A stretch of 63,850 nucleotides of DNA, filler included, from Raillietiella orientalis (GCA_036172245.1; 3 parts of 3 records of this genome joined end to end with filler, not necessarily neighbours in it); one strand, 5' to 3'; shown: positions 1,231 to 24,598, counted from the whole stretch's first letter. Made by a program: numbers and translations. Notes: generated from the letters alone by a model not told the origin.

Positions 1231-1233
1231 GCT

Positions 1234-1752: not shown

Positions 1753-1766
1753 TGAATTAATAATTC

Positions 1767-1826
1767 TAGAATTTACTGTGGTAATTATAACATGACAAGT
1801 TATTGTTGTTTTTTAACTAAAATTCT
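1767..1826 (-). tRNA. trnD: mitochondrial tRNA-Asp (GTC) pseudogene in NUMT
   Basis: Minus strand AGAATTT...ATAAC TTGTCAT GTTAT...AAATTCT: acceptor and anticodon stems pair. Confidence 0.85.
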
Positions 1827-1834
1827 GAATTTTG

Positions 1835-2496: not shown

Positions 2497-2551
2497 TACT
2501 AAGTATTATGAATGGATTTTAAGTCCAGTGCATTAATTCTGCCATATTAGT
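2497..2551 (-). tRNA. trnL2: mitochondrial tRNA-Leu(UUR) pseudogene between cox1 and cox2
   Basis: Minus strand ACTAATATGGCAGAATTAATGCACTGGACTTAAAATCCATTCATAATACTTAGTA; TAA anticodon; T-arm appears replaced by a short loop. Confidence 0.85.
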
Positions 2552-4073
<1,522 letters not shown>

Positions 4074-4083
4074 AATAAGTTCA

Positions 4084-4138
4084 TAAGATTTTATATTTCT
4101 AACTTTGAAGGTTAGTATTTTATTTAACTTATAATCTT
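4084..4138 (-). tRNA. trnW: mitochondrial tRNA-Trp (TCA) pseudogene
   Basis: Minus strand AAGATT...CTAAC CTTCAAA GTTAG...AATCTT; about 55 nt, no T-arm visible. Confidence 0.85.
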
Positions 4139-4152
4139 GAAATGTTAGGTAA

Positions 4153-4212
4153 AGTAAAATGGCTGAGGAAAGCAGTAAATTGTAAATTTATTTATGATGA
4201 AATCTTTTACTA
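4153..4212 (+). tRNA. trnY: mitochondrial tRNA-Tyr (GTA) pseudogene
   Basis: AGTAAAATGGCTGAGGAAAGCAGTAAATTGTAAATTTAT...TTTTACTA, a typical arthropod trnY. Confidence 0.85.
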
Positions 4213-4236
4213 TTGAGTGACGGAATGTTATTCTGG

Positions 4237-4275
4237 AGTTTCTAGAATTGCAAGTTCTATGTTGTCTGAGAACTG
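4237..4275 (+). tRNA. trnC: mitochondrial tRNA-Cys (GCA) pseudogene, apparently lacking a D-arm
   Basis: Anticodon arm TAGAA TTGCAAG TTCTA; acceptor-like AGTTTC...GAGAACT; boundaries uncertain. Confidence 0.65.
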
Positions 4276-4998
4276 ATAAGAAATAGTAGTGGTACAAGGT
4301 GGTATAAGGTGCGCACTAAAATCTGAGTTTAGGGGATATGTTAAAGGTATCTTGTAAATTGAGAGTTGATCGATGTGTTGGTAGTTAGAGTAGAAATGAG
4401 AAGGGTAAAAATGTGAGGAGAAGAGAGATGGACATGGGAAGGAAAGGTGGTATGGGGGCAGTTCTGGGTTCGTTTTTTGGAAGGATGGTGAATGATGGGA
4501 GTCTAATGTTGAGATAGATGAGAAGAGAGATTGAGGAGGAAATGATTAAGATGATTGCTAGTGGGATGGGAATCAGTTCTAAAGTTGTTCATTTGGGGAA
4601 AAAGCCTGGGAGGGAGGGTATGCAGGAGAGGTTGAGTAATATGAAAGTATGCTTGTTTTCTGTAAAAGTAGGAGGCATCTAAGTGTATTAAACGAATAAA
4701 TGGTTAAATATGTAATTCATATTGTGGAAGATAGGTTAATTGTGAAAGTTATTCAGATATAGGGGAGGCAGATGAATAAATTATGAGTAACTGTATGGAG
4801 GAGGTAGATAGGGCCATAATACAAGAGAGTGTAGCTCTGAGAATTGTGGAAATTAAAATAATTGATGATGGTAGAAGGGAAATGATGAATGTGGGGCAAC
4901 TTTTGTGAGGTTAGGAGGATATTGATTGATAGTCATGAACAATTGTTGATCATAAGTAATAATTAATAATGGGTATTATGCCTAGAAGTAGCACAATA
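4276..4998 (-). pseudogene. nad2: NADH dehydrogenase subunit 2, 3' part (NUMT)
   Basis: LNLSCMPSLPGFFPKW (ND2 LS.GG.PP..GF.PKW motif) near 4590-4640; same base skew; 5' end cut by the retrotransposon fragment. Confidence 0.8.
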
Positions 4999-6470
4999 TG
5001 GGAACTGGGATAAAGTGACGTCAAAGCCAACTCATCGTGCCAAATTTCATTGCTCCCTGGCACGATTTTGAATTGGTGAGTTCTCACCAGTGCTCGTTTC
5101 CCTTGCCAGGTGGGGTGGATGTGCACCCACTATCCATTGGTATGCATCAGCGCAGACATCAGGACCCTCGAGTTCGACAACTACGAGTATGCCCTGCTCA
5201 CTGCTAAGGCCATCCCTCCCGTTTCGAGGGGAGATCTAGAAGTTGTCCCGCGTCCATAGACTCCACGGAGTGTTCTAGCAACTTCATTCTGGACTCTCCT
5301 TCTTCACGAGGGCGCCACAGCAATTTGAGCCTAACTCTCGGCCTAAATTTCCACAATCCGATCTTCCTTTGGAGGTTTTCAAGCTCCACCTTTGCTTTGT
5401 CTATTCGGCAGAAGAACGCTCCGTAGAGCACCTTAGGAAGGAGACCGCCATTCCACAAGATGGCTTTCCGCTTCATGTTGAAGTACACGCGAGTGTACTT
5501 GGTGGCTGAGGGTGGCCATCTGGTGTTGATTTGATCTTGTTTTTGTTAGTTTTTCGTTTGGGGCATGTGTTCCTCTTCCTATTCTGAGGTCTGGTATCAC
5601 CCATGTCGCTTTCGGACTCTTCATAGTCCGTGCTATCGGCGACTGGGTGCACGCTGCAGGTGAGGCCGTTGATCGGTTCGGAACAAGGCAAAAACGTGGG
5701 CGCCACACTAGTGTATGTCTTTTTGATGTTGAATAGTCTATCCTCCGGCACGAGTCGTTGCTCGTCGTTAGGGACGCATTCATCGCTGGATATTTCCACC
5801 ATGCAGGTTCTCTCGAGTGCTTCCGTCCTTGATTCCACTCGTTCGATTTGTGCGAGCTCTGCTTGCATGTTGGCAACTTCCACCAACTCCGAAGGTGGCG
5901 CAGAAATCTCCATCAGCTTCTCGGTTGTCGCGGCAACTTCCGCCGACTCTTCTGAGGATAGTTGAGCGACTCACTTCATCTTCCTTTTCTTATTTTCCTC
6001 GGTGAATACCTCTGCGGTCATGGCAGTCTCCTCGGTCAGAGGAGCTTGTATTGAGGCATTAGGCTATCGAGTCTTGTTTTGCCACCCCTGGCACCTTGGC
6101 GTCTTCAAAGCGTGTCATCATTGCAAACCTTTCCTCTGAGAAGATCTCCCCTAACAGGTTGCATACTTCCAGCTGCATGATTTCTCCGTACTGGAACACG
6201 AATTTCTTCATGGTATTCTTACTGGTGTTAAAGTAGAGATTTTTCAGGACTCTTCTCGTGGAGGTTTCGCCCATTCCACCCAACAGTAGAACATATATTG
6301 ACAGCCTTTTATCTTTAATTGCTTCGACAAGCGGGTCCCATGATGTGCATATGGTAAAGCCGGTCGCGCAGGGAATAATGGCCTGTGTTACGTTGAAGTC
6401 GACGTTTTAAGGGTGAAAAGCGATGTAAATGTCCTTCACATTAGCAGTTAGGAGAAGGTCGTTAAATGAG
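4999..6470 (-). mobile_element. Unit E: heavily deleted, diverged copy of the Tx1-like LINE family
   Basis: ORF1 RRM remnant (ANVKDIYIA...FNTSK...QYGE...GEIFSEE) at 6060-6460; ORF1 C-terminus at 5520-6000; ORF2 start ATGGCCACC joined to the post-RT region ATKYTRVYFNMKRKAILWNG; no U1 head. Confidence 0.85.
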
Positions 6471-6529
6471 TTTGCTTTGAAGTAATTCATTCCATCGCTT
6501 GTGAGACTAGGGAACCATCCTGTTCGCTA

Positions 6530-9306
6530 CCGCAATTTTCGGTGCACATGGCCTTCGTGGGCATCACCATCGGTTTCTAGGGGGACACCACTCCTGTCCT
6601 CTGAAACAAACCCAAAAGTGTGCCTTTCTGTCTTCCTCTGCAGACACCTCACCGCCTTCACCGCGTTCCAGTCTGGTCGAAGAGTAGGGAAGGTGAGTAC
6701 GTGGAGTTGAGTTTGGTCTTCGCACGCCATGCAGAATTCGTTCTTCTGTCTCCCGGTCCAGTGCCACATTCTGGAACCACTCAAAATGCCTCCGTTGAAG
6801 AACAAAAGGAGGTCGTCCTGAGTGTCTGGGGGTAGGTCACTCCTCATCAGAGCAGCCCCGACGGCCAGCACATTGGCTTGCGCTGGGCCGTAGCGGCTCG
6901 AGGCTGCGTCCAGGGCATTGAGGTCTTCCTGCTTCTTCGAGGTTTCCACCATGATGTTATCTTTGGTCATGAGCAGCCACGACTCCTGCGGCTGCTCCTT
7001 CCAAAAGTCCCGAATGCGATGGTTGAAACAACCCCGCAAGGTCGTGGTCAGGCGATGCAGTCGCAGTTGGTGCCGGCTGGCACTGGTAGCGAACTGCTCG
7101 CACCGTCGGATGTTCAATCTAGGCCTTTGGTTCAACCAGTTCACCGTCTTCTTTGGGATCGGGATGAAGTGAGGTATCACCATGGCCAGTTCTTCGTCCC
7201 ATATCTCGGAGCTGCGAGGCACGATTTTGAACCCTTGGGTTCTCACCAGTGCCTGCTTCCGCTTCCACGTAGGGTCGATGTCAATCCACTGTCCTGTGGC
7301 ACCTATGAGCGCTGACATCAGGCCCCTCGAGCCGTTCAACAGCTTCCAGTACGCCCGGTGCGCTGCATAGGGCCAGTCTTCCCAACTTCTGGTGAGATCC
7401 AGGAGCTGGCGCGCATCCATGCTTTCCACGGAGTGTTGCAACAGCTTCATCCCGGTCCCACCGTGCTCGCGAGGGCGGCACAGAAGTTTGAGCCGTACCC
7501 TGGGTCTATATTCCCGCCAGAGGATCTTCCTTTGTAGCCTTTCCAGTTCGTCCTTCGTCTTCTTGTCCATTCGGCATAAGGCCGCTCCATAGGACAAATT
7601 GGGAAGAACTCCATTCCACAAGGCGGACCTCCGCTTCATGTTGAAGTCGACGCGGGTGTACTTGGTGGCTTCATCGGTGACCTTAACGAGGATCTCCTGC
7701 CACCGGCAGCGAGACAAGATCTGGTCGCCAAGGTGGATTCCCAGGTGTTTTACGGTATCTGCCGCTCGGAATCCGGCTTCTTGCAGTGCGCAGAAGTTCA
7801 TGATTCCCGATTGGCAGCGGTGGCTCTACTGGGTGTTGATCCCAACTCCCAGTACTATTTACAATTGCTTGATTACACCTAGGATGGCTTCTTGATCTCG
7901 TTCCTACTTTAGGAAGAACAGGAGATCCTCCTCATACGCCAGGTGTATCAGCTGCTGTCCATCGATTCGTATTCGTTGGAGGCGGCTGCCCCGATCTATG
8001 ATCGCGGACACCGCCTCCATGTAGAGCACGAACAGCATCGGGCTCAGGGCGTCACCTTGGCGAACACCCCTTTCCATTTCAATTGCTGCCGTCTCCAGCC
8101 CGTTCAAATTGATCTTCACACGTTGCTCCCTCAAGGTTCATTCCAAGTAGTGAATGAAGAAGCTTGGGAAGCCCAGTTTCCTCAAGAACTTCAGCAGCAT
8201 CTCGTGGTCTATGGTATCGAACGCCGTCTCCATATCCGTTAGCCCAAGCACCAGGTCTTCGCCTACATATAGGCAATAACCAATGGTGGCCAGGGCGCAC
8301 TTCACGTTCGCAGACATGCTTCGTCCGGGCACCGCGCACGTCTGCGCTGGAGACACTACCGATGCCATCGACCAGCGATTGGCCCAAATCTTGACCAGCG
8401 ACTTGGCATGCGTGTTGAGGATGGTGATCGGCCGCCATTGGGTGACTTCCATCAGGTCGCCCCTCTTGGGCAGCAATGTCATGCTTTCCTCGTGTAACGG
8501 TGTTGGCAGTCTTCTTCCTGGATTGCGATTGTGAGTTCGTAGAACAGGCGAAGGTAGGCGTGCAGGTACCGCTGATGGTGCGAGATCGGAACACTATCGG
8601 GACCTGCGGCCATATCCTTGCGCTGTCCAGCGAAGTCAATCTTGATTTGCTCTGGGGAGATCTCTTCTTTCATCTTCTGTTGGTCTTGTTTCTTTACTCG
8701 CGGATGTAGGTACCTCAGGATGTTCTGTTGTTCCGTCGGGCACAGACGTCGCCGCCGGAAGTGGTAGACGTAATGATGGTGGAACGTTTCCGCGATTCCT
8801 TCCGACGTGTGCCTGAGTTCGTCTGCGTGCCGGATGGAGAGCACGTCGCTGGCGATGTTCGTCCTTTCCGGCACTCCAACCTCCCCTTTCACCGTCTTGA
8901 AGACGTACCGGCTCTCGTACTGGAACCCGTATTTCGAGAGCGAGCGATCTTGTTGCTGTTCTAGCTCATGGTACGCTTCCGACCTCATCTTCCAGTCGCC
9001 GAACTGCATGTTATTGAACAGATGGATGGTGCGCTTCAGCCTGTCCCAGTCGCCGACCCTGCGTATGGTGGTGTTGCGCAGGATCGCCTCGATCATGTCC
9101 TGGTAATAGGGATGCGTCTCGAACCATGCGGGCATGCATACTAATGCAGCCTGCACTTCCTCAGGGGGTGTTGCGTTTTTCACGTGGATCGTAGCAAGGT
9201 TCGATCCGACAGTACTGATGGAGTTTTCTTGAAGCCTTGCACACGATTGACGATGTCTCCAGGATGTGACGTTTATGTTCGTGAACGTCGACAGGAAGGT
9301 GGTCAT
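6530..9306 (-). pseudogene. Unit A ORF2 (RT + Zn finger; endonuclease mostly deleted)
   Basis: AAGPD, LLPKRGDL, WRPITILN, DMETAFDTIDH, GVRQGDALSPMLF, YEED (broken YADD), VKHLGI, CMACEDQTQLHVL; stops and frameshifts. Confidence 0.92.
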
Positions 9307-9312
9307 AGTTGA

Positions 9313-12034
9313 TTAGTTGGATGAACTGATCTTTTTGTTCTTTTTCGGGAACGATGTCGTCTTGCTCTTTTCTCTTCGCTGCTCCCAAATGTTCCTGTCT
9401 GTACCGACGTAGTCGGTGTTGTCGGCGACCGAGTGCGTGGTGTAGTTGGCGATGCTTTGTGGAGTTGCATAAGGCAATTCGTGAAGCTCGCCGTTAGAGT
9501 ATCTTTTCTTGAATTCCAGAATTCTGTCTTCGAGAGAGAAGCGACTGGCATCATCGGGAACACGCTTGTTGATTGAGATCACCAACGGATAGATGTTTGC
9601 GAAGGCCTGTGATCCCTTTTCCTTGGTGATTGCATCGTTCAGCATTTCCTGCAGTTCCTCCTCCGGGGTGACGTTGGGAATTTTCTCCAGTTTCGCTGTC
9701 GATGCCTCCGGCACCGCCTCCAGTGGCTCGAAAATTTCCGTCTGCTTTTCCATGATGCGTTTTTGTGTAGCCTTTGAAATTGATAGGCTTCTGCTCGGAG
9801 ACTTCTTTCCTTTTGGAGGCATTCACCTCTGCCAGGGGAGCATTCTTTTTTTCCGCTTCGCTATTCTCTTCCGTTGGGAGTGACGGCAGTCCCTGCGCGT
9901 CATTTCACGCAGCATCTCGACGGAATTCTTTTTTGGAATGGCCCGACAGCCGGCAGAAGTAGCACATGATGGGCCTCGTGCACGTCTTGCACGTGTGCCC
10001 CTGCTGGCCGCAGCGGTGGAACTGCGAATTTGAACAAGCGCCGAAGCGATACCCGAACGTTTTGCAGCCCACGCAGAACGCCGGTTGCTGCCTGTAGCAG
10101 ATGAGCACGCATCCGAGAGTGCGTCGATGTAGGCCACTCCCGGGAGCTCGGCCTCGTCGAACAGCTTCATCCGTGCCCAGCCTTCTGCGGAGAAGATGCC
10201 GTGCATCTGATTTTTGAGTTCTACGTGCATTACCTCCCCGTATTGGGAGAGGTAATTGCGGACGGCCAGTCTCGACGTGTTGAAGTCTATGCCTTTCAGG
10301 AAGACTGTCGTGGTTGACACTTCGCCCATTCCGCGGAAGATTCTTCCGTTTATGGGGAGGCTGTGTTCGATGAGTCCCTCTATCAGCGGCTCGCACGACG
10401 TGTAGATTGTGAAGCCGGTGGCGTCCGGGATGATTGCCTGGATGACGTCCAAGTCGACGTTCTTCTGGTGAAGGGCGATGTAGATGTACTCCACGCTGGC
10501 CATCCTGAGAGGCCCGGTCTGCAAAATCACGGGCTTGACTTCCGGACTCACCGTCATGAACGGCAGATCCTCCTCGTTTACCATGTGAACTTCCTGGGCT
10601 GCCGGGTTTCTTCTTTTTGCCGGGGGCACCCCGGGGAAACTTCCGAAAATCGTGAAACTCGCGTTCGACGGGAACGACGGCGCGGCCGCGTACGACGCCG
10701 GGCAGGGAGCCGCGCGCGTAGCTGCGGGCGTTGCTTCCGGCATAGCTTCCGGCGTCGTCTTGGTAGGTGCTGCGAGCGCTGCTCCCGCCTTAGCTGCGCT
10801 CGCAGCACTTCCCAAGGATTTCGGGACTCCTTTGACTTCTGCTGTGACTTTGGCAACTTTTTCCAACTCGGCTGCTTGTACTTCCACCGCTTCCTTGGAT
10901 GGCTCGGCCTCTTCCGCCGGTGCTTCCACAGAAGGTTGTGGTGCTGTCCTTTTCTTCCGCTTGGTGGGCTTCTTTCTCCCTTCGTTGGGTTCTCCCGTCT
11001 TCCTTGCAGTAACCTTGTTCGAAGGAGCCACCTTCTCTTTTTCTGCTTCCTCGGGTTCTGTCGGGAGTGGCGGCAGGCCCTGCGAATCTCTCCCTGCGGC
11101 GTATCGTCTGCATTCCTTCTTGGAATGACCAGACAAGCCGCAGAAGTAGCAGTTTATGGGCTGGTTGCATTCCCGGTGGAAGTGGCCCTGCTGGCCGCAT
11201 CGGTGACACTGCGCCCTAGGGCATGTTCCGAAGCGGTGGCCGAACGTCTCGCAACCAGCGCAAAAGATTGGCTGTTGTCTATATTTCAGCAGCACGGATT
11301 GGGAATAGGCGTCTATGTACGCCAGGTCCGGCATCTTCGCGTTCTCGAACAAACGCATCCTGGCGAATCCCTCCCCAGAGAAGATCTCGCCGTATTGATT
11401 CCGTAGTTCGAGATGTACAACTTCCCCCTACTGGCATAGAAAGTCCTTTATCGTTTTCTTGAGGGTGTTAAAGTCGATCCCTTTTATGTATACGGTCGTC
11501 GTGGAGGTTTTTCCCACTCCACGGAACAGACGACAATTTATCGTCAGACCCTGCTCTACCAGGCCTTCAATCAACGGCTCACGCGGTGTAAATGTGGAAG
11601 CCGGTTCCGCTGGGTATGATGGCGTTGATCACATCCGAGTCTACGTTGCTCTGGTGAAGGGCTATGTATATGCCCTAAACATTCGCCATGCGGAGGGGAG
11701 CCGTGTTGAACACGACAGGTTTCGCCTCCGCATCCCTGCGAAGAATGGGTTCGTCTTCATCGTCGAGCACGAAACGTGCTGGCTGCACCGATGTACGCTT
11801 TTTCGCTGGGGGTATCCCAGGAAAATCATTCGTCCTTGCCACTTCCGCATACGAACGGCTAGATGGCGCCGCCGCTGCTGCCGCTGCCGACGACGCAGGG
11901 CGGATCCATACGGGCGTCGCAACCAGCTTTGCAGGGGTCGCCGCTCCCGCGCACGCTGCGTTCGGCCGTACCGCCGATGTCGCCGCCAGCGCCTCTACCG
12001 GCCTCGCAGATGTGGAGACGTCCATCGCCTCCAT
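9313..12034 (-). pseudogene. Unit A ORF1, chimeric: two Ala-rich + RRM + 3xCCHC modules in tandem
   Basis: Module 1 knuckles CAGCETFGHRFGTC/CHRCGQQGHFHREC/CYFCGLSGHSKKEC (~11090-11265); module 2 CVGCKTFGY../FHRCGQQGHTCKTC/CYFCRLSGHSKKEF (~9925-10075); frameshifts. Confidence 0.88.
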
Positions 12035-12171
12035 TTTCCCCCAGTGGGGCCGATCCCGTGGGGCAACGTCCTCCTCCGCACACTGGGTGGTAGGGCAAAG
12101 TCCACGGTCCCTTTCTGTCACAAACTTTCCGCACAGCACTTTAAAAAAAACACTTTCCTTCAAGAATTTCG

Positions 12172-12335
12172 CAGGAGTCCGCGCGAACGCAGTCTCCCAG
12201 CCTAAAAATTATGCTTCCGAGTAACCCACGTTTGGGGTTATCGCAGAGGTCAGCCCAATCGCAGTGCAATGATCGAGCCTCACTCTGGAGGGATCTCCAT
12301 GGTGACCAAGATTGTCCCCAAGTCCGACAAGCGGT
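12172..12335 (-). ncRNA. U1: Variant U1 snRNA-like sequence, copy 1 (164 nt)
   Basis: Minus strand ACCGCTTGTCGGACTTGGGGACAATCTTGGTCACCATGGAGATCCCTCCAGAGTGAGGCTCGATCATTGCACTGCGATTGGGCTGACCTCTGCGATAACCCCAAACGTGGGTTACTCGGAAGCATAATTTTTAGGCTGGGAGACTGCGTTCGCGCGGACTCCTG. Collinear with metazoan U1: SLII loop ATTGCAC, SLIII loop CAAACGT, Sm site AATTTTTAG, SLIV GCG-TTCG-CGC. Confidence 0.93.
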
Positions 12336-12343
12336 GGGGTGAG

Positions 12344-12349
12344 TTTATT
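12344..12349 (-). terminator. AATAAA polyadenylation-like signal at the 3' end of unit B
   Basis: Same position (8 nt before the U1-like start) at all three junctions. Confidence 0.7.
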
Positions 12350-12490
12350 GAACATCACAAAACCTTACACACTGTACATAAACAGAAACATTCGACTTCA
12401 CAACTAAACACTGTTTCCGTCTTTGGAGTTTCCTTCTTCTCCTCTTTCACAATTAAGTCACTCGTGTTCTCTGGGGAATTAGGGGGCGGG

Positions 12491-15400
12491 TTAGGGGTTT
12501 CTCCTTTGTGCCTGGGAATACTCGTCCATCTTCATGAGGATGTAACGGTACGTCCAGGCGGCGATCCTCCCGCAGCTCCTGATCCCTATTTCCTTTCGAA
12601 CAAGGCCACTGAGAATGTCCCAAGCCGGCACTTGTCGTCGCTGTGTATACATCTAGGCCCTTCTTATCACAATGGCTGTGATGAAGAGGGCCAGCGTCGT
12701 CAAAACCATCGGATTGTACAGGGGAACCACTCCTGTGCCCTGAAACAATCCCCACAGGATCTGCATCGCAGTCTTCCTCTGCAGGCACGTCACCGCCTTT
12801 ACCGCCTTCCAGTCCGGACGCAGCGTGGGGCAGGTGAGTACGTGGAGTTGGGTTTCCTCTTCTCCGCAAGCCTTGCACAATCCATCTTGTTGTCTCCCGG
12901 TCCAGTGCCGCAATCTGGATCCACTCAGAATGCCTCCGTTGAAGAACAACAGGAGGTCGTCCTGAGTGTCCGGAGGTAGGTCGCTCCTCATCAGTGCAGC
13001 CCCGACGGCCAGCACATTGGCATGTGCTGGGCCGTAACGGCACGAGGCTGCGTTGAGGGCATCCAGGTCTTGGTGTTTTCGCGCCGTTTCCACCCTGATG
13101 TTATCTTTGGTCATCAGCAGCCACGACTCCTGCGGCTGCTCTTTCCAAAGTTCCCGGCTGCGATGATTGAAACTACCCCTCAAGGTCGTGGTCAGGCGAT
13201 GCAGTCGCAGTTGGTGCCGGCTGGCACTGGTAGCGAACTGCTCGCACCGTCGGATGTTCAATCTAGGCCTTTGGTTCAACCAGTTCACCGTCTCCCTTGG
13301 GATCGGGATCAAGTGAGGTATGACCATGGCCAGATCTTCGTCCCATATCTCGGAGCTGCGAGGCACGATTTTGAACCCTTGGGTTCTCACCAGTGCCTGC
13401 TTCCGCTTCCACGTAGGGTCGATGTTGATCCATTGTCCTGTGGCACCTATGAGCGCTGACATCAGGCCCCTCGAGCCGTTCAACAGCTTCGAGTACGCCC
13501 GGTGCGCTGCATAGGGCCAGTCTTCCCAACTTCTGGTGAGATCCAGGAGCTGCCGCGCATCCATGCATTCCACGGAGTGTTGCAGCAGCTTCATCCCGGA
13601 CCCACCGTGTTCGCGTGGGCGGCACAGAAGTTTCAGCCGTACCCTGGGTCTATACTCCCGCCAGAGGATCTTCCTTTGTAGCCTTTCCAGTTCTTCCTTC
13701 GTTTTCTTGTCCATTCGGCAGAAGGCTGCTCCGTAGAGAACCTTGGGAAGGAGAACTCCGTTCCACAAGGCAGCCCTCCGCTTCATGTTGAACTCGACTC
13801 TGGTGTACTTGGTGGCTTCGTCGGTGACCTTACCCAGGATCTCCTGCCACAGGCAGCGAGACGCGGTCTCTTCGCCGACGCGGATACCCAGGTACTTGAC
13901 GGTGTCAGCCGCTCGGAATCCGGCCTCTTGAAGTACTGAGAGGTCCATGATCCCGATTGGCAGCAGGTGGCTCTTCTGGGAGTTGATCTTGAGTCCTAGT
14001 CCATTTTCCATCTGCTTGAAAACACCTAGGAATGTTTCTTGATCACGTTCGTCCTCCAGGAAGAACAGCAGATCGTCCGCATACGGAAGGTGTGTCAGCT
14101 GCTGGCCGTCGATTTTGAATGCTTGTAGGCGGCTGCCCCGGTGTATGATCTTGGACACCGCCTCCATGGAGAGCACGAGCAGCATCGGTCTCAGGGCGTC
14201 ACCTTGGCGAACACCCCTTTCCATCCGAATTGCTTCAGTCTCCGGATTGCTCCGCCAGGGTCCATTCCAGGTAATGCATGAAGATGCTTGGGAAGCCCAG
14301 TTTCCTCAAGATCATCAGCAACATCGAGTGGTCCACGGTGTCGAACGCCTTCTCCATATCCGTGAGCCCAAGCACCAGGTCTTCGCCCACGTATCGGCAA
14401 TAAGCGATGGTGGCCAGGGCGCACTTCACGTTCGCAGTCATGCTTCGTCCGGGCACCGCGCATGTCCGCGTAGGAGACACGACGGATTGCATCGCCATGC
14501 TTAAGCGATTGGCCCACATCTTGGCCAGCCACTTGGCATCCGTGTTCAGGATGGTGATCGGCCGCCATTGGGTGACTTATATCAGGTCGCCTCCCTTCGG
14601 CAGCAGTTTCATCCTTCCCTCGTGGAACGATGCTGGGAGTGTTCCTTCTTCGTGGATGGCGTTTGTCAGTTCGTGGAACAAGCGAAGGTAGGCGTGCAGG
14701 TACCGCTGATAGTGCGAGATGGGAACACTATCGGGACCTGCCGCCACATCCTTGCGCAGTCCAGCGAAAGCGATCTTGATTTCCTCTGGCGAGATTTCTT
14801 CGTCTATCTTTTGGTGAGCCAGATTCTTTACTCGCGGAGGTAGGTACCTCAGGATGTTCTGTTGTTCCGTCGGGCACAGGCGTCGCTGCCGAAAGTGGGA
14901 GACGTAATGATGGTGGAACGTTTCCGCGATTCCCTCGGACGTGTGCCTGACTTTGTCTGCGTGCCGGATGGAGAGCACGTCGCTGGCGATGTTCCTCCTT
15001 TCCGGCACTCCAACTTTTCATTTGACCGTCTTGAAGACGTACTGGCTCTCGTACTGGGGCCAGTACTTCGAGAGCGAGCGATCTTGCTGCTGTTGCAGCT
15101 CGCGGTACGCTTCCGTCCTCATCTTCCTGTCGCCGTATTGCATATTACTGAACAGATGGATGGTTCGCTTCAACCTGTCCCAATCGGCGACCCTGCGAAT
15201 GGTAGTGTTTCGCAGGATCGCCTCGATCAAATGCTGGTGACAGGGATTCCTCTCGAACTATTCCGGCATTCATACTAATGCATCTGCGCGCCTTCTTTTC
15301 TTCGGGGGTTCTCTTTCTTCAGCGTGAATCGTAGCAGGGGATGATCCGAGAGTACCGATGGAGATTCCCGGAAGCCTTGCACACGATTCGCGATGTGTTC

Positions 15401-15974
15401 GTTGAAGAGGACGTTTTCGATCGGCTTGCTGCTGCCAACAGCCATTGCAGGCCGAACTCGTCCGACAGCTGCCGATAAGCCGTTCTTCCCTGTGCATCCT
15501 TGGACAGGTTGATGTCCAGCATGTTAAGGTCAGCCACAACGATCAAGATGTCCTTTGTCGAGGCTTTGCTGCGAAGGAGAGACTGCACGGCCTCCGCGTA
15601 GCGATTGTTTTTTCGTTTGGCGCGTACACGTTCAATAAGAACAGGTGAACGTTTCCGGACCAGGTCAACCTCACTCCGACGATTAGGCCTGGCCAAGGTG
15701 AAAAGGTTTTGAGGATGGTGTGTGCGATCTCGTTCTTCACGATGATTGCTATGCCTTTGGTGCTTTTCTGGGCCGGGCTCACGAACAGCTGGGCGTCCAG
15801 TCGTCGTTCCAGCTCCAGGATGGTCTGAAGTTTGAACTCGTGGGTTTCCTGAAGGCAGACGATGTGGTCACGCTCGAGGGTCCGCGTGACCATCCGTCTC
15901 TTCTCCGGGTTCCACAATCCATTCACATTCCAGGAGATGTTGATGCTCCTGACATTCGAAAGGAAGGTGGCCAT
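12491..15974 (-). pseudogene. Unit B ORF2: APE endonuclease + reverse transcriptase + C-terminal Zn finger
   Basis: ISWNVNGL, IVCLQETH, LLNVYAPN, DLN, SDH (APE); AAGPD, LLPKGGDL, WRPITILN, DMEKAFDTVDH, GVRQGDAL, YADD, VKYLGI (RT); CKACGEEETQLHVLTC; several frameshifts and a premature TAG at 12653. Confidence 0.95.
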
Positions 15975-15980
15975 AGGGGA

Positions 15981-17543
15981 CTAGTTGGAGGACCTGCTCT
16001 TCCTCTTGCTCTTCTTCTTCTTCGGAGACGTTGTCGTCCCCCCCTTTGCGTCTCGCTGATCTCCTACGTCGCTTTCTGTCCCGACGTAGTCGTTGCTGTC
16101 CGCGACAGAGTTCCTCGTTTCATTTAGGACATTTCGAGGGACTGCATAAGGCAGCTTATGAAGCTCCCCTCTGGCGAAGCGCTGTTTCACGTCCTGCATG
16201 CTTCCCTCCAATTGGAAACGTTTGGCCGCGTCTGGAACGCGCTCGTTGATGGAGGCCTCCACCCGGCTGATGCGTTGCAGAGCTTCTGACTTCGCTTCTC
16301 TGGTTACTGCTTCCTGCACGATTTTCGCGACTTCCTTGACTTCAGCTGTCACGTTGGCTACTTCCAGCAACTCTGCAGCTTGGAATTCCACCGCTTCCTT
16401 GGCTGGCTCGGCCTCTTCCGCCGGCGCTTCCACAGAAGGTTGTGGTGCTGTCTTTCTCTTCCCCTTTGCGGGCTTCTTTTTCCCTTCGGTGAGTTCTGCC
16501 ACCTTCCTGGCAGTAACCTCGTCCGAAGGAGCCACCTTCACCTTTTCTGCCTTCTTGTCGGGTTCGCTTGGAAGCGGAGGCAATCCTTGTGCATCTCTCC
16601 ATGCGGCGTATCGTCTGCATTCCTTCTTGGAATGGCCAGACAAGCCGCAGAAGTAGGACTTGATCTTCTGGTTGCACTCCCGGAAGAAGTGGCCTCGCTG
16701 GCCGCATCGGTGACATTCAGCCCTAGGGCATGCTCCGATGCGGTGCCCAAACGTCTTGCAGCCTGCGCAAAATACAGGTTGTTGCCTGTATTTGAACATC
16801 AGCGATTGCGAATACGCGTCGATGTAAGCCACGCCAGGCATCTGCGCATTTTCGTACAGGCGCATCTTGGCAAATCCTTCTCCGGAGAAGATCTCACCAA
16901 ACTGGTTCCGTATCTCCAGATGGTGGACTTCCCCGTACTGCGACAGGAAGTTCTTGATGACTTTCTTGCTGGTGTGAAAGTCAACCCCTTTCAGGTACAC
17001 TGTCGTCGGAGAGGTTTCTCCTACTCCACGGAATAGCTTCCCATTGATGGTCAATCCGTGATCGCAAAGTGCCTCGATGAGGGTATCGCACGACGTGTAA
17101 ATGGTGAAACCTTTCACACACGGAATCACGGCCTGAAGTACGTCCATAGCGACGTTTTTCTGATGAAGGGCGATGTAAATGTCCTTCACGTTTGCTAAAC
17201 GAAGGGGACCGCAGTTAAAAACTACCGGCTTGACATCTGCCGGCAGGACGAGTATAGGCTCATCCTCGTCGTCCAGGATGTACCTTGTTGGTTGGACAGG
17301 GATCCTCGGTTTTGCCGGAGGCACTCCCGGAAAACCGACCGATTTCACCGCCGCCGCATTCCAACCGCCAGGTGTCGCCGCCGCTGCTGCCGCCGCGTAC
17401 GACGCAGGGCGGATCGATACGTGCGTCGCAACGAGCGTTGCAGGGGACTCTGCTCCCGCGCACGCTGCGTTCGGCCCTACTGCCGATGTCGCCGCCAGCG
17501 CCTCTAGCGGCCTCGCACATGTGGAGACGTCCATTGCCTCCAT
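15981..17543 (-). CDS. Unit B ORF1: gag-like nucleic-acid-binding protein (Ala-rich N-term, RRM-like domain, 3 CCHC knuckles, charged helical region, basic tail)
   Basis: Uninterrupted frame (track ORF 15981..17588 from GTG; first ATG at 17543, matching unit A); third knuckle has C->S. Confidence 0.85.
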   Translation of the reverse strand: MEAMDVSTCARPLEALAATSAVGPNAACAGAESPATLVATHVSIRPASYAAAAAAATPGGWNAAAVKSVGFPGVPPAKPRIPVQPTRYILDDEDEPILVLPADVKPVVFNCGPLRLANVKDIYIALHQKNVAMDVLQAVIPCVKGFTIYTSCDTLIEALCDHGLTINGKLFRGVGETSPTTVYLKGVDFHTSKKVIKNFLSQYGEVHHLEIRNQFGEIFSGEGFAKMRLYENAQMPGVAYIDAYSQSLMFKYRQQPVFCAGCKTFGHRIGACPRAECHRCGQRGHFFRECNQKIKSYFCGLSGHSKKECRRYAAWRDAQGLPPLPSEPDKKAEKVKVAPSDEVTARKVAELTEGKKKPAKGKRKTAPQPSVEAPAEEAEPAKEAVEFQAAELLEVANVTAEVKEVAKIVQEAVTREAKSEALQRISRVEASINERVPDAAKRFQLEGSMQDVKQRFARGELHKLPYAVPRNVLNETRNSVADSNDYVGTESDVGDQRDAKGGTTTSPKKKKSKRKSRSSN

Positions 17544-17679
17544 TTTCCCCCACTGGGGCCGATCCCGTGGGGCAATGTCCTCCTCCACACTCTGGGTGAT
17601 GAGGCAAAGTCCACTGTCCCTTTATGCCACAAACTTTCCACAGAGCACAAGAAGAAATTACTTTCCTTGAAGAATTTCG

Positions 17680-17843
17680 CAGTAGTCCGCACGAACGCAG
17701 TCTCCCAGCCTAAAAATTATGCTTTCGAGTAACTCACGTTTGAGGATAGCGCAGAAATCAGCCCAACCGCAGTGCAGTGATCGAGCCTCACTCTGGAGGG
17801 ATCTCCATGGTGAGCAAGTTTGTCCCCAAGTCCGACAAGCGGT
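17680..17843 (-). ncRNA. U1: Variant U1 snRNA-like sequence, copy 2 (degenerate)
   Basis: Same length as copy 1 with 13 substitutions by hand count, including U1A loop ATTGCAC->ACTGCAC and SLIII/SLIV mismatches. Confidence 0.9.
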
Positions 17844-17851
17844 GGGGTGAT

Positions 17852-17857
17852 TTTATT
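17852..17857 (-). terminator. AATAAA signal at the 3' end of unit C
   Basis: Positionally conserved upstream of U1-like copy 2. Confidence 0.7.
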
Positions 17858-18000
17858 CAACAATACAAAAATCCTTACGCATTGAACATCAAGAGACACA
17901 TTCGAATTCGCAACTGAACACTGTTAATGTCTTTGGAGTTTCTTTCTTCTCCTGTTTCACCATTAAGTAACTCGTGTTCTATGGGGAATTAGTGGGCGGG

Positions 18001-21000
18001 TTAGTGGTTCGTGTTTTGTGACTGGGAATACTCGTGCATCTTCATGAGGATGTAACAGTACGTCCAGGCGTTGATGCTCCCGCAGCTCCTGATCCCGATT
18101 TCCATACGAACAAGGCCATTCAGGATGTCTCATGACGGCACTTGTCGTCGCTCTGTATACATCTTGTCCCTTCTTATCACAATGGCTGTGATGAAGAGGG
18201 CCAGCGTCGTCAAAACCATCGGATTGTACAGGGGAACCACTCCAGTCCCCTGAAACAGTCCCCACAGGATCTGCATCGCAGTATTCCTCTGCAGGCGCTT
18301 CACCGCCTTTACCGCCTTCCATCCGGAACCAGCGTGACGCAGGTGAACACGTGGAATTGAATTTCCTCTTCCACACACGCCATGCAGAATACATCCTGCT
18401 GTCTCCCGGTCCAGTTCGCTGTCTGGAACCACTCAGAATGCCTTTGTTGTAGAACAACAGGAGGTCGTCCTGGGTGTCCGGGGGAAGGTCCCTCCTCATC
18501 AGTGCAGCCCCCACGGTTAGAACATTAGCATGCGCTGGGATGTAGGGACAGGAGGCTGCGTTGAGGGCATTTAGGGCTTGATGTTTGCGCGCCGTTTCCA
18601 CGCTGATGTTATCTATGGGCATGAGCAACCACGACTCCTGCAAGTTTTCTTTCCAAAGTTCGCGGGTGCGATGTTGAAATAACCATTCAAGGTCGTGCTT
18701 AGGCGATGCAGTCGCAGTTGGTGGCGGCTGGCACTGGTAGCGAACTGCTCGCTCCGTCGGAGGTTCAATCTAGGCCCTTGGTTCAAAAAGTTCACCGTCT
18801 CCCTTGAGATCGGGATGTAGTGAAGTATCACCATCGCCAGTTCTTCATACCATATCTCGGAGCTGCGAAGGACGATTTTGAACCCTAGGGCTCTCACCAG
18901 TGCCCTCTTCCGTTTCCACGTAGGGTCGATGTTGATCCACTGTCCTGTGGCGCCTATGAGCGCTGACATCACGCCCCTCGAGCCGTTCAAGAGCTTGGAG
19001 TACGCCCTGTGCGCTGCATAGGGCAAGTCTTCCGAACTTCTGGTGAGATCCGGGTGCTGCTGCGCATGAATGCTTTCCACGGAGTGTTGGAGTAGCTTCA
19101 TTCCGGTCCCACCGTGCTCGCGTGGGTGTCAGAAGTTTCAGCCGTACCCTGCGTTTATACAGAGGATCTTTCTTTGTAGCCTTTCCAGTTCCTCCTTCGT
19201 CTTCTTGTCCATTCGGCAGAAGTTTGCTCCGTATAGAACCTTGGGAAGGAGAACTCGGTTCCACAAGGCAGCCCTGCGCTTCATGTTGAAGTCGACTCTG
19301 GTGTACTTGGTGGCTTCGTCGGTGACCTTACCCAGGATCTCCTGCCACAGGCAGCGAGACGCAGTCTCTTCGCCGAGGCGGATACCCAGGTACTTGACGG
19401 TGTCAGCCGCTCGGAATCCGGCCTCTTGAAGTACTGAGAGGTCCATGATCCCGATTGGCAGCAGGTGGCTCTTCTGGGAGTTGATCTTGAGTCCTAGTCC
19501 ATTTTCCATCTGCTTGAAAACACCTAGGAATGTTTCTTGATCACGTTCGTCCTCCAGGAAGAACAGCAGATCGTCCGCATACGGAAGGTGTGTCAGCTGC
19601 TGGCCGTCGATTTTGAATGCTTGTAGGCGGCTGCCCCGGTGTATGATCTTGGACACCGCCTCCATGGAGAGCACGAGCAGCATCGGTCTCAGGGCGTCAC
19701 CTTGGCGAACACCCCTTTCCATCCGAATTGCTTCAGTCTCCGGATTGCTCCGCCAGGGTCCATTCCAGGTAATGCATGAAGATGCTTGGGAAGCCCAGTT
19801 TCCTCAAGATCATCAGCAACATCGAGTGGTCCACGGTGTCGAACGCCTTCTCCATATCCGTGAGCCCAAGCACCAGGTCTTCGCCCACGTATCGGCAATA
19901 AGCGATGGTGGCCAGGGCGCACTTCACGTTCGCAGTCATGCTTCGTCCGGGCACCGCGCATGTCCGCGTAGGAGACACGACGGATTGCATCGCCATGCTT
20001 AAGCGATTGGCCCACATCTTGGCCAGCCACTTGGCATCCGTGTTCAGGATGGTGATCGGCCGCCATTGGGTGACTTATATCAGGTCGCCTCCCTTCGGCA
20101 GCAGTTTCATCCTTCCCTCGTGGAACGATGCTGGGAGTGTTCCTTCTTCGTGGATGGCGTTTGTCAGTTCGTGGAACAAGCGAAGGTAGGCGTGCAGGTA
20201 CCGCTGATAGTGCGAGATGGGAACACTATCGGGACCTGCCGCCACATCCTTGCGCAGTCCAGCGAAAGCGATCTTGATTTCCTCTGGCGAGATTTCTTCG
20301 TCTATCTTTTGGTGAGCCAGATTCTTTACTCGCGGAGGTAGGTACCTCAGGATGTTCTGTTGTTCCGTCGGGCACAGGCGTCGCTGCCGAAAGTGGGAGA
20401 CGTAATGATGGTGGAACGTTTCCGCGATTCCCTCGGACGTGTGCCTGACTTTGTCTGCGTGCCGGATGGAGAGCACGTCGCTGGCGATGTTCCTCCTTTC
20501 CGGCACTCCAACTTTTCATTTGACCGTCTTGAAGACGTACTGGCTCTCGTACTGGGGCCAGTACTTCGAGAGCGAGCGATCTTGCTGCTGTTGCAGCTCG
20601 CGGTACGCTTCCGTCCTCATCTTCCTGTCGCCGTATTGCATATTACTGAACAGATGGATTGTTCGCTTCAACCTGTCCCAGTCGGCGACCCTGCGAATGG
20701 TAGTGTTTCGCAGGATCGCCTCGATCAAATGCTGGTGACAGGGATTCCTCTCGAACTATTCCGGCATTCATACTAATGCATCTGCGCGCCTTCTTTTCTT
20801 CGGGGGTTCTCTTTCTTCAGCGTGAATCGTAGCAGGGGATGATCCGAGAGTACCGATGGAGATTCCCGGAAGCCTTGCACACGATTCGCGATGTGTTCGT
20901 TGAAGAGGACGTTTTCGATCGGCTTGCTGCTGCCAACAGCCATTGCAGGCCGAACTCGTCCGACAGCTGCCGATAAGCCGTTCTTCCCTGTGCATCCTTG

Positions 21001-21475
21001 GACAGGTTGATGTCCAGCATGTTAAGGTCAGCCACAACGATCAAGATGTCCTTTGTCGAGGCTTTGCTGCGAAGGAGAGACTGCACGGCCTCCGCGTAGC
21101 GATTGTTTTTTCGTTTGGCGCGTACACGTTCAATAAGAACAGGTGAACGTTTCCGGACCAGGTCAACCTCACTCCGACGATTAGGCCTGGCCAAGGTGAA
21201 AAGGTTTTGAGGATGGTGTGTGCGATCTCGTTCTTCACGATGATTGCTATGCCTTTGGTGCTTTTCTGGCCCGGGCTCACGAACAGTTGGGCGTCCAGTC
21301 GTCGTTCCAGCTCGAGGATGGTCCGATGTTCGAGCTCGTGGGTTTCCGGAAGGCAAACGATGTGGTGACGCTCGATGTTCCGCGTGACCATCCGTCTCTT
21401 CTCCGGGTTCCAGAATCCATTCACATTCCAGGAGGTGAGCTTGGTGCTCCTGACAGTCGACAGGAAGGTGGCCAT
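18001..21475 (-). pseudogene. Unit C ORF2 (APE-RT-Zn finger), disrupted
   Basis: LTSWNVNGF, IVCLPETH, VYAPN, YADD, VKYLGI; shares frameshifts with unit B and has extra lesions in the 3' third. Confidence 0.93.
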
Positions 21476-21481
21476 AGGGGA

Positions 21482-23044
21482 CCAGCTGGAAGATCTGCTC
21501 TTCCACTTGCTCTTCTTCTTCTTGGGTGACGTTGTCGTCCCTCCCTTTGCCTCTCGCTGATCTCCTACGTCGCTTTCTGACGGGTCGTATTCGGTGCAGT
21601 CGTCGACGGAGTTCCTCGTTTCTTTGGCGACGTTTTGCGGAGGTGCATGAGGCAGCTCTTCGTGCTCCGCGCTGGCGAAGCGTTGTTTGACTTCCGGCAT
21701 GCCTTCTTCCAATTGGAAACGTTTCGATGCGTCTGGAACGCGCTCATTGATGGAGGCCTCCATCCGGCTGATGCGTTCCAGATCTTCTACCTTGGCTTCT
21801 TTGGTTACTGCTTCCTGCACGATTTTCGCGACTTCCTTGACTTCAGCTGTCACGTTGGCTACTCCCGCCAACTCTGCAGCTTGGAATTTTACCGCTTCCT
21901 TGGCTGGCTCGGGCTCTTCCGCCGGCACTTCCACAGAAGGTTGTGGTGCTGTCTTTCTCTTCCCCTTTGTGGGCTTCTGTTTCCCTTCGGTGAGTTGTGC
22001 CGCCTTCCTGGTATTCACCTCGGCCGAAGGAGTCTTTTTCTCCTCTTCCGTTTGCACTTGCGGTTCCACCGTTAGTGGTGGCATCCCCTGTGCGTCCCTC
22101 CATGCGGCTTATCGCCTGCATTTCTTCTTCGAATGACCAGACAAGCCGCAGAAGTTGGACTTTATTGCCTGGTTGCACTCCTGGAGGAAGTGGCCCTGCT
22201 GGCCACAACGGTGGCACTGAGCTCGGGGTCACTGTCCTACGCGGTGTCCAAAAGCCTTGCACCCCACGCAGAAGATTGGTTGCTGCCTATGTTTTAGCAA
22301 GACTGATTGCGAATAGGCGTCTATATACGCCAGCCCCGGCATCTTGGCGTCTTCAAACAATCGCATTTTGGCCAAACCTTCCCCGGAGAAGATTTCGCCG
22401 TAATGATTGCGGATCTGCAGATGTTGGACTTCCCCGTATTGGGACAGGTATTCCTTAATGATCTTTTTGTGGGTGTTGAATTCGATGCTCTTGATGTACA
22501 CTGTAGTCGTGGACGTTTCTCCCACTCCACGGAACACCCGACCGTTAATAGGCAGTCCGTGTTTTGTCAGAGCCTCGATGAACGGATCACACGATGTGTA
22601 TATCGTGAATCCCGTCCCGTTTGGAATTACAGCCTTAATGACGTCAAAGTCAACGTTCTTCCGGTGAAGGGCGATACAAATGTCCTTCACGTTTGCGATT
22701 CGGAGTGGCCCAGTGTTGAATATTACAGGCTTCACCTCCGCATTTCTCTGTAGGATGGGTTCATCTTCGTCCCCGAGGACGTTTACTGTGGGTCTGACCG
22801 GGGTTGTCGGTTTTGCCGGAGGCACTCCCGGAAAATCGTCCGGTTTTGCCGCCGTTCCATTATAACGGCTAGGTGGCGCCGCCGCTGCTGCCGCTGCAGA
22901 CGACGCAGGGCGGATGGATACGAGCGTCGCCACGTGCGTTGCAGGGGATGCCGCTCCCGCGTACGCTACGTTCGGCCCTACCGACGATGTCGACGCCAGC
23001 ACTTCTACCTGCTTCGCAGGAACGGAGACGCCGATCGACTCAAT
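21482..23044 (-). pseudogene. Unit C ORF1, disrupted
   Basis: RRM and knuckles present; start codons changed to ATT/ATC, frameshift near 22230, stop TAG changed to TGG. Confidence 0.88.
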
Positions 23045-23182
23045 TTTTTCCCCACTGGAGGTATTCCCGCAAGGCAATGTCCTCCTCCGCTTACTGGGTT
23101 GTAGGGGAAAGTCTACGGTCCCTTTCTATCACACCACTTTCCACGCAGCACTCGAAAAAACCACTTTCTTTAAAGAATTTTG

Positions 23183-23346
23183 CAGGAGTCCGCGCGAACG
23201 CAGTCTCCCAGCCTAAAAATTATGCTTCCGAGTAACCCACGTTTGGGGTTATCGCAGAGGTCAGCCCAATCGCAGTGCAATGATCGAGCCTCACTCTGGA
23301 GGGATCTCCATGGTGACCAAGATTGTCCCCAAGTCCGACAAGCGGT
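23183..23346 (-). ncRNA. U1: Variant U1 snRNA-like sequence, copy 3 (identical to copy 1)
   Basis: Base-for-base match to 12172-12335 by manual comparison. Confidence 0.93.
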
Positions 23347-23351
23347 GGGGT

Positions 23352-24498
23352 TAGTTTATTATGTACCAAACGTACAACCGAACACTCTAGTTTTCCACTT
23401 CCACAAAACAGAATACTGCATTTGTCTGTAGAGTTAAATTTCAGTTCACATTCGCTATTAGTCCACTTTAGTATAAGGTAGGGTTAAGGTGCGGTAGAGT
23501 TCGTCCTTTGTGCCTGGGAATACTCGTCCATCTTCATGAGGATGTAACGGTACGTCCAGGCGGCGATCCTCCCGCAGCTCCTGATCCCGATCTGCTTACG
23601 AACAAGGCCACTGAGAATGTCCCAATCCGGACGCTGTGTATACATCTTTGCCCTTCTTATCACAATGGCTGTGATGAAGAGGGCCAGCGTCGTCAGTAGC
23701 ATGGTATTGTACAGAGGAAAAACACCCGTCCTCTGAAACAATCCCCACAGGATCTGCATCGCAGTCTTCCTCTGCTTGCACGTCACCGCCTTCACCGCTT
23801 TTCAGTCCGGACGCAGCGTGGGGCAGGTGAGCACGTGGAGTTGAGTTTCCTCTTCCCCACACTCCATGCAGAATCCATCCTGCTGTCTCCCGGTCCAGTG
23901 CCGCATTCTGGAACCACTCAAAACGCCTCCGTTGAAGAACAACAGGAGGTCGTCCTGCGTGTCCGGGGATAGGTCACTTTTCATCAGTGCAGCCCCTATG
24001 GCCAGTACATTGGCTTGCGCTGGGCCGTAGCGGCTCGAGGCTGCGTCGAGGGCATCGAGGTCTTGCTGCTTCTTCGCGGTTTCCACCCTGATGTTATCTT
24101 TGGTTATGAGCAGCCACGACTCCTGCGGCTGCTCCTTCCAAAGTTCCCGGATGCGATGGTTGAAACAACCCCGCAAGGTCGTGGTCAGGCGATGCGGTCG
24201 CAGTTGGTGCCGGCTGGCACTGGTAGCGAACTGCTTGCACCGTCGGATGTTCAATCTAGGCCTTTGGTTCAACCAGTTCACCGTCTCCCTTGGGATCGGG
24301 ATGAAGTGAGGTATCACTATGCCTAGTGGTTCGTCCCATATCTCGGAGCTGGGAGGCAGGATTCTGAACCCTTGGGTTCTCACCAGTGCCTGCTTCCGCT
24401 TCCACGTAGGGTCGTTGGTTATCCACTGTCCTGTGGCACCTATGAGCGGTGACATCTGGCTCCTCGAGCCGTTTTTTGTTTTCTTGTCCATTCGGCAG
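23352..24498 (-). mobile_element. Unit D: 3' end of another family member, cut by the contig end
   Basis: ORF2 C-terminus (CMECGEEETQLHVLTC...YSQAQRTNSTAP*), an internal deletion near 24470 (DKKTK joined to NGSRS), distinct 3' UTR. Confidence 0.92.
23355..23360 (-). terminator. AATAAA signal at the 3' end of unit D
   Basis: Positionally conserved although the unit D 3' UTR does not align with those of B and C. Confidence 0.7.
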
Positions 24499-24598
24499 NN
24501 NNNNNNNNNNNNNNNNNNNNNNNNNNNNNNNNNNNNNNNNNNTTAATTAATTAANNNNNNNNNNNNNNNNNNNNNNNNNNNNNNNNNNNNNNNNNNNN
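24499..24598. other. Artificial contig linker (N44-TTAATTAATTAA-N44)
   Basis: Exactly 100 bp, six-frame-stop palindrome in the centre, identical to the second gap. Confidence 0.97.

Follow-up and report, generated by a model that had tools for sequence, protein, structure and literature searches.

U1-like modules lacking the splice-site-pairing end lie at three joints of a head-to-tail LINE array from Raillietiella orientalis

Small nuclear RNA (snRNA) sequences are reportedly joined to long interspersed nuclear element (LINE) sequence in the human genome as snRNA/L1 chimeric retrocopies (U6-L1 and similar), which are said to be one-off, dead insertions with target-site duplications. In crocodilians, the SINEU families of short interspersed nuclear elements (SINEs) and the Tx1-Mar families of LINEs carry heads derived from U1 or U2, and the available text of the study describing them attributes such heads to recurrent 5' addition by template switching and to recombination with other U1 sequence (Kojima 2015, PMC4494074). 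A different arrangement is given in the available parts of PMC4640811 for the Keno and Utopia LINEs, which split U2 at a fixed site, with intact U2 genes and their own flanks lying between the elements. Here we describe three U1-like sequences at the joints of a head-to-tail LINE array with a period of about 5.5 kb in DNA of 63,850 nucleotides from Raillietiella orientalis (GCA_036172245.1), the whole of which we call the window. The window consists of three contigs (24.5, 24.4 and 14.7 kb) joined via N44-TTAATTAATTAA-N44 linkers at 24499-24598 and 49034-49133; these linkers with their 44-N runs look like artificial joiners, and the window is therefore not one continuous stretch of the genome. 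The U1-like copies and the LINE array all lie in contig 1 (1-24498), on the minus strand. The U1-like copies, the junctions they define between LINE units A to D, and the short conserved tract that precedes them are as follows.

12172-12334, minus strand: U1-like copy 1 (junction J1, where the 3' end of unit B meets the 5' untranslated region (UTR) of unit A); cmscan match to RF00003 of 105.2 bits over model positions 1-166, E 1.9e-25; the tract equal to copy 3 is 12171-12340.
17680-17842, minus strand: U1-like copy 2, decayed (junction J2, between units C and B); cmscan match of 68.5 bits; differs from copies 1 and 3 at 13 of its 163 nt, each change being private to this copy.
23183-23345, minus strand: U1-like copy 3 (junction J3, between units D and C); cmscan match to RF00003 of 105.2 bits over model positions 1-166, E 1.9e-25; equal to copy 1.
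12335-12349, also 17843-17857 and 23346-23360, minus strand: conserved 15 nt directly upstream of U1 (AATAAACTCACCCCA), with AATAAA and no A-run; 14 of 16 nt are common to J1 and J3.

The copies start 5508 and 5503 nt apart. The full-length covariance model of U1 (RF00003, gathering score 69.5 bits) is matched above its threshold by copies 1 and 3, and copy 2 falls just below it. Like spliceosomal U1, the modules have the full-length secondary structure, the loop of stem-loop II (SLII), an Sm-like site and SLIV. The stems of SLII, SLIII and SLIV, which an earlier reading of this DNA from its sequence alone (the sequence-only reading) had quoted as kept, are present both in the cmscan alignment and in the minimum-free-energy (MFE) fold. 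The SLII loop of copies 1 and 3 is the consensus CAUUGCACU, and that of copy 2 is CACUGCACU; among about 46 pairs, the cmscan alignments mark 4 as non-standard in copies 1 and 3, and 8 in copy 2. The Sm site had been called intact by the sequence-only reading, and is better described as close to the consensus AUAAUUUgUGg but not identical to it, as it reads AUAAUUUUUAGG. Unlike spliceosomal U1, all three copies lack the sequence that pairs with the 5' splice site, their first 11-13 nt reading CCGCUUGUCGG against the Rfam consensus AUACUUACCUG, with few letters in agreement. The SLI loop likewise departs from the U1 consensus, there is no shared upstream region, and the context is that of a transposon. 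No stand-alone U1 was detected by cmscan in the window. Modules of this kind score above the Rfam threshold, and annotation will list them as U1 genes despite the missing splice-site-pairing end. Pairing of the altered 5' end with a site in the LINE was considered and rejected, as the complement CCGACAAGC with at most one mismatch occurs at 16 sites against 12.06 expected, and exact sites occur only in the U1 copies themselves.

Copies 1 and 3 are equal base for base, as the sequence-only reading had stated, in an exact match over 170 nt (12340 to 12171 and 23351 to 23182); elsewhere, units A and C match exactly over no more than 40 nt at a stretch. That the adjacent LINE sequence has diverged between these two copies is equally borne out, with 0 of 163 positions differing in U1 and 103 of 437 in flanks that reach 150 nt on the upstream side and 300 nt on the downstream side (Fisher p = 2.7e-16).

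The anatomy of the three junctions is uniform. The U1 modules are on the same strand as the open reading frames (ORFs) of the LINE, and each is preceded by a LINE 3' end with AATAAA and 9 further nt (AATAAAMTMACCCCA), without an A-run. After each module, beginning at the same nucleotide in all three junctions, there follows a 5' UTR of about 136-140 nt and then the start of ORF1 (MEAMDV...), such that U1 directly adjoins the upstream LINE 3' end as well as the downstream 5' UTR in 3/3 junctions. No spacer, split U1 or target-site duplication was found at the three junctions. A forced alignment of the 150 nt that precede copies 1 and 3 gives 62% likeness, which is to say that they are unalignable, and at promoter distance the two copies therefore have no element in common. 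This combination, in which spacer, split, target-site duplication and shared upstream region are all lacking, argues against both ordinary U1 genes and the Keno/Utopia pattern. The 15-16 nt directly before U1 are kept between J1 and J3, even though the two 3' UTRs cannot be aligned over the ~135 nt before that. The sequence-only reading had held that the 3' UTRs of B and D do not align; this is true of their last ~135-150 nt, whereas their first ~165 nt align at ~94-96%. The last ~150 nt of the 3' UTR (12351-12501 in unit B) appear as a replaceable segment, of which B and C carry one version and D an unrelated one. In one contig of a DNA run (X1), 12350 is joined directly to 12502 and the variable 151 nt in between are absent from the 3' UTR, which is a weak hint that other copies may also link the conserved 3' UTR to the AATAAA-U1 end.

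The explanation that we favour, and hold with moderate confidence, is that the U1-like sequences are a module derived from U1 snRNA that forms a colinear part of the ~5.5-kb LINE repeat, was captured once, and is now copied with the element, here in a mosaic array. In an ancestral element, one end would have acquired a U1 pseudogene or an entire U1 RNA, and we infer that this occurred either by template switching of the reverse transcriptase (RT) or by transduction. The module would then have lost its 5' splice-site-pairing sequence and would since have been copied with the element. That 3/3 copies have one and the same odd 5' end and agree in both junction points fits a single capture, and fits it better than the repeated re-templating from a functional host U1 that had been proposed from the sequence alone. 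The array itself would have arisen from independent element copies of several lineages together with exchange between units, giving a mosaic of young and old pieces, and copies 1 and 3 would be identical mainly by recent common origin or homogenisation of the mosaic piece that contains them.

Set against the described systems, this locus shares features with each. In human snRNA/L1 chimeras snRNA is also joined to LINE sequence, there by template switching in reverse transcription. In contrast, the fusion here has identical junctions and is common to units that diverged under protein-level selection, and it is therefore heritable within the LINE family. As in Tx1-Mar and SINEU, so far as the available text of PMC4494074 describes them, U1-derived sequence is fused directly to a non-long-terminal-repeat retrotransposon and is carried by diverged subfamilies, and the LINE is of the type with an apurinic/apyrimidinic endonuclease (APE), its relatives being L1/Tx1-like. 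The U1 head of SINEU-2, which that text finds quite like the heads of Tx1, consists of a short 5' fragment, with the junction to U2 near position 53-58. In contrast, the module here is a complete 163-nt U1 fold of four stem-loops with its 5' end replaced rather than kept; it lies at every joint of a head-to-tail array, leans towards ownership by the 3' end, and occurs in an arthropod-like rather than a crocodilian host. Like Keno and Utopia as presented in the available text of PMC4640811, the LINEs are interleaved with snRNA sequence in an array that holds several families. Unlike them, U1 is whole, without gene flanks, and adjoins LINE ends on both sides.

The units between the U1-like copies, and a LINE remnant beyond them, are the following.

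6530-12171, minus strand: LINE unit A, with 5' UTR, frameshifted ORF1 containing an internal duplication, broken ORF2, and a truncated 3' end joined to fragment Z.
12350-17679, minus strand: LINE unit B, with 5' UTR of ~136 nt, ORF1 open for 546 codons stop to stop (15984-17621), and 3' UTR of ~305 nt.
17858-23182, minus strand: LINE unit C, with ORF1 start lost (ATT), an Exo_endo_phos match in 21041-22108 (Pfam, 1.2e-6), and an RT C-terminal frame with 8 stops.
23361-24498, minus strand: LINE unit D, 3' part only because the contig ends there, with an RT C-terminal frame open for 231 codons, and 3' UTR.
5007-6454, minus strand: fragment Z, an internally deleted LINE remnant with an ORF1-like part (6081-6454) and an RT-like part (5007-5507), from blastn self-comparison.

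In unit B the endonuclease (EN) and N-terminal RT part contains at least 5 in-frame stops, and the RT C-terminal frame is open for 550 codons (12656-14305); the unit has a Pfam match to RVT_1 (3.1e-11). Over the ORF1 and RT C-terminal pieces, 17 comparisons between units gave 16 ratios of nonsynonymous to synonymous divergence (dN/dS), 15 of them at 0.20-0.53 and one at 1.05, with one comparison lacking a dS; dS between units is mostly 0.3-0.95, and 0.04-0.28 in the closest pairs. Ratios below 1 imply that most of the divergence arose under protein-level selection, as active elements. From these substitution patterns, the units appear to be independent element copies, and they are not simple tandem duplicates of one dead copy. 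The LINE family is also multi-copy and diverged in run X1, as shown by the spread of likeness among its 43 contigs on 6500-12660 (3 at 99% or more, 5 at 95-99%, 8 at 90-95% and 27 below 90%). X1 is one DNA run (share 0.06) with a depth of 1.5-2.2 over the U1 bins, which is too little for copy number or variants.

Recent relationships are superimposed on this older divergence. Units B and C have a common block of 1,892 nt with only 2 differences (13880-15771 and 19378-21269), including exact runs of 1,282 and 588 nt, and units A and B have a near-identical stretch in the RT C-terminal part. The closest pair of units thus changes along the unit, and the array is therefore a mosaic. The B/C block holds at least 5 in-frame stops, and near-identity in such a block means that identity arises in this array without selection. 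The block indicates either recent exchange between array units or assembly collapse.

This mosaic structure bears on whether the U1 part is specially conserved, since much of the apparent contrast with its flanks arises from comparing U1 with mosaic pieces of different history. U1 is more alike than every flank in pair 1-3 and in pair 2-3 (p = 7.7e-7), and in pair 1-2 there is no significant excess, at 92.0% for U1 compared to 87.7% for the flanks (p = 0.15). Downstream of copies 1 and 3, the 5' UTR and ORF1 of units A and C are 80-84% alike. Upstream, past the replaced segment, no two units are closer than B and D, the pair at J1 and J3, in 8 of the 9 windows covering 900 nt, and over this length they are 91% alike; in the alignable 3' UTR block nearest to U1, 8 of 191 nt differ between them (96% alike). 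Changes private to J1 number 0 of 163 in U1 and 17 of 574 in the flanks (p = 0.018). Where the U1 copies differ, at 13 positions, the change is in every case private to copy 2, and J2-private changes are as dense in U1 (13/163) as upstream (79/889; p = 0.88), running at 8-13% from about -317 to about +260. With a density of change equal to that of its flanks and with broken pairs doubled from 4 to 8, copy 2 is a passive fossil decaying with its surroundings. We consider that there is at most modest extra constraint on the U1 module. The suggestion of the sequence-only reading that the U1 part is under selection or is re-templated, rather than being a passive fossil, therefore stands in part: the cassette-like borders of the identical tract and a residual excess of identity, both described below, agree with it, while the state of copy 2, the lack of a canonical 5' end and of a shared upstream region, and the near-identity of dead B and C sequence do not.

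Several observations weigh against a module that was captured once and then simply copied with the element. The evidence base is three junctions in one contig of a fragmented assembly. Between J1 and J3 there are no differences from -5 to +164, the first being at -6 and +165, so that the identical tract ends within ~6 nt of the U1 borders on both sides; the end of a random conversion tract would match the downstream U1 border only a few times in a hundred, and this points to a cassette-like process, either selection on U1 or RNA-templated renewal. Even against the nearest alignable block of B and D there is a residual excess of identity, with 0 of 163 differences in U1 where about 7 would be expected (p = 0.0085), and against the 900 nt upstream the absence of differences between copies 1 and 3 has p = 2e-6. 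J2-private changes extend ~100 nt into the downstream 5' UTR, which means that the history of the module is not cleanly tied to the upstream element. The decay of the ORFs could partly be assembly error. The published precedent, in the available text of PMC4494074, puts U1 at the 5' end of LINEs and not at the 3' end. Finally, no related locus emerged from database searches: a 26-mer from the U1 3' end had 0 matches in metagenome contigs, 175 pattern matches to the RT protein in metagenome contigs included none that was confirmed, a 5' 19-mer had 2 matches in viral contigs that were phage-like, contained no U1 by cmscan and are attributable to chance, and a 23-mer had 0 matches in prokaryote genome contigs.

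Which end of the element owns the module may be approached from the state of its neighbours. Intact copies 1 and 3 follow 3' halves that are young and closely related, with open RT C-terminal frames (550 codons in B and 231 in D), and decayed copy 2 follows the broken frame of C with its 8 stops. The pattern downstream is reversed, with the intact copies preceding the broken ORF1s of A and C, and copy 2 preceding the only intact ORF1, that of B. From these decay states and the site patterns, we favour, without regarding the matter as settled, the possibility that the upstream element carries the module as its tail (3' end), rather than the downstream one as its head. The opposite assignment, as a head at the 5' end, is favoured by literature precedent and by the AATAAA lying just upstream of U1.

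A first alternative to a module copied passively after one capture is that selection maintains the U1 fold as a cis-acting element of the LINE RNA, either a structure for recognition or jumping by the RT or a platform for Sm/U1A-type proteins conferring stability or nuclear import, which decays only in dead copies. This is a tentative possibility that we judge to be improbable. It would account for differences between J1 and J3 that start at both borders of the module and are absent within it, and for the excess likeness of U1 over the flanks in pairs 1-3 and 2-3 and over the closest related flank. It is also consistent with the fact that copies 1 and 3 retain 42 of the ~46 pairs together with the SLII loop and the Sm-like site, while the splice-site-pairing part was free to change, and with the position of the intact modules beside open RT C-terminal frames and of the decayed module beside a broken one. 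Such selection would not be expected to leave pair 1-2 without significant excess, and near-identity is also seen in plainly dead sequence of the array. In addition, the copies amount to two distinct sequences only, which are too few for covariation, and the single-sequence MFE fold of the module is not exceptional (z = -1.69).

In a more specific form of this proposal, which we likewise put forward as doubtful, the LINE would have taken over the complete U1 fold as a working terminal RNA domain, keeping the stems, the U1A-type loop and the Sm-like site and discarding the splice-site-pairing end. If this were so, the RNA of the element could borrow proteins of the small nuclear ribonucleoprotein (snRNP) for stability or nuclear import, and the U1 fold might be a landing site for end-to-end template jumps that give rise to head-to-tail arrays of different family members. 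It would then be the first LINE with a selected full-length snRNA domain, and, should the fold prove to be selected, a case of a retrotransposon using snRNP architecture for its own RNA.

It is also conceivable, although we think it distinctly unlikely, that the module is renewed at each insertion, as in the second option of the sequence-only reading: on reaching the template end, the LINE RT would switch to an abundant RNA of a U1 variant, such that diverged lineages receive the same U1. The cassette-like borders of identity are what such renewal would produce, and the complete 3' end of U1 adjoins the LINE 5' UTR as an end-to-end jump would give. The heads of SINEU-2 arose by multiple 5' addition events according to the available text of PMC4494074; the added ends described there vary by up to 22 nt, in contrast to the junctions here, which are at the same nucleotide on both sides in 3/3 cases with no untemplated letters. 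The source RNA would moreover need to have the non-consensus 5' end and a conserved ACCCCA extension, and J2-private changes are even across both borders of the module, as for a block inherited whole.

A further proposal, to which we give very little credence, is that variant U1 genes or pseudogenes of the host are the target of a U1-specific LINE, as U2 is for Keno and Utopia, and that the array was built by repeated targeted insertion. Units of different lineages do occupy the same relative position, as their dN/dS ratios below 1 attest. Utopia families form arrays with U2 genes in Phytophthora (PMC4640811, available text), and the Tx1 clade is described as rich in target-specific families in the available text of PMC4494074. 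An inserted target would, however, be split, and here a complete module lies unsplit on both sides of the elements with no spacer, promoter region or target-site duplication, and the window contains no stand-alone U1. The transposons targeting snRNA genes that are given in the available text of PMC4640811 are only Keno and Utopia (U2), Dada-U1 and Dada-U6, and a U1-targeting LINE would be new.

Least probable of all is that the identity is an artefact of assembly or polishing in a repeat-rich, fragmented assembly, for although the window is made of short contigs joined by linkers, contig 1 also joins mitochondrial-like DNA to the array and the perfect B/C blocks of 588 and 1,282 nt could be collapse, copy 2 kept its 13 differences while lying between the two identical copies, and the sequence flanking copies 1 and 3 stays different as far as the U1 borders themselves.

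The locus would extend what has been described in two directions. U1-headed LINEs and SINEs have so far been reported from crocodilians, with short fragments only, and a whole, well-folded U1 at LINE joints in an arthropod-like genome would extend the phenomenon to another phylum and to a full-length snRNA. In open-access full-text literature, a search that left subscription journals and Repbase reports outside its range, we found no U1-derived sequence on a retrotransposon, and no U1-targeting or U1-tailed LINE, beyond the Kojima papers. The available text of papers on tapeworm U1 snDNA (PMC12274263) and on Hebe (PMC2861651) has no bearing on the question of U1 and LINEs.

The LINE that carries the module has the features of an APE-type LINE of the L1 group, namely an APE endonuclease, an RT and a C-terminal Cys/His motif. 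ORF1 encodes three CCHC knuckles and a weak RRM-like stretch, and the RT C-terminus contains YADD and a CX2CX7HX3C motif, both recognised on visual inspection of the translated sequence; a Pfam search of the LINE's own C-terminus did not detect zf-RVT. The nearest relatives are 21-30% identical and have the L1-like architecture Exo_endo_phos + RVT_1 + zf-RVT, and Atlas neighbours of the LINE carry RVT_1 and zf-RVT. The best solved structure is human L1 ORF2p (2.3e-13), and the EN piece had no match in the PDB. By architecture the relatives appear to be L1/Tx1-like, and the LINE itself could belong to the Tx1 or to the L1 clade.

Other features of the array depart from the regular unit. In unit A the ORF1 frame (9826-11427) holds a second, diverged RRM-like/CCHC part, and this internal duplication makes unit A ~540 bp longer than B and C. 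Over 5007-6560, fragment Z combines an ORF1-like piece with an RT C-terminal piece, EN and most of RT being missing, and unit A, truncated at its 3' end, runs directly into it without an intervening U1; no U1 match was found in fragment Z at E values up to 1. Fragment Z may have arisen by deletion across what was once a junction, or it may be a non-autonomous derivative.

The remainder of the window is of a different character. GT-rich, decayed mitochondrial-like DNA occupies 139-4960, with an ND4-like frame on the plus strand, COX1- and COX2-like frames on the minus strand, and a tRNA-like match of 60 nt at 4153-4212. Arthropod COX1 is the closest match to the COX1 piece (64-74% identity), making an arthropod, or a near relative of one, the probable host. 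This DNA, which adjoins the LINE array, may be either a nuclear mitochondrial insert or a chimeric join. Contigs 2 and 3 (24599-49033 and 49134-63745) are filled by a 278-bp satellite with ~93% matches, present in ~88 and ~50 copies, respectively, in opposite orientations.

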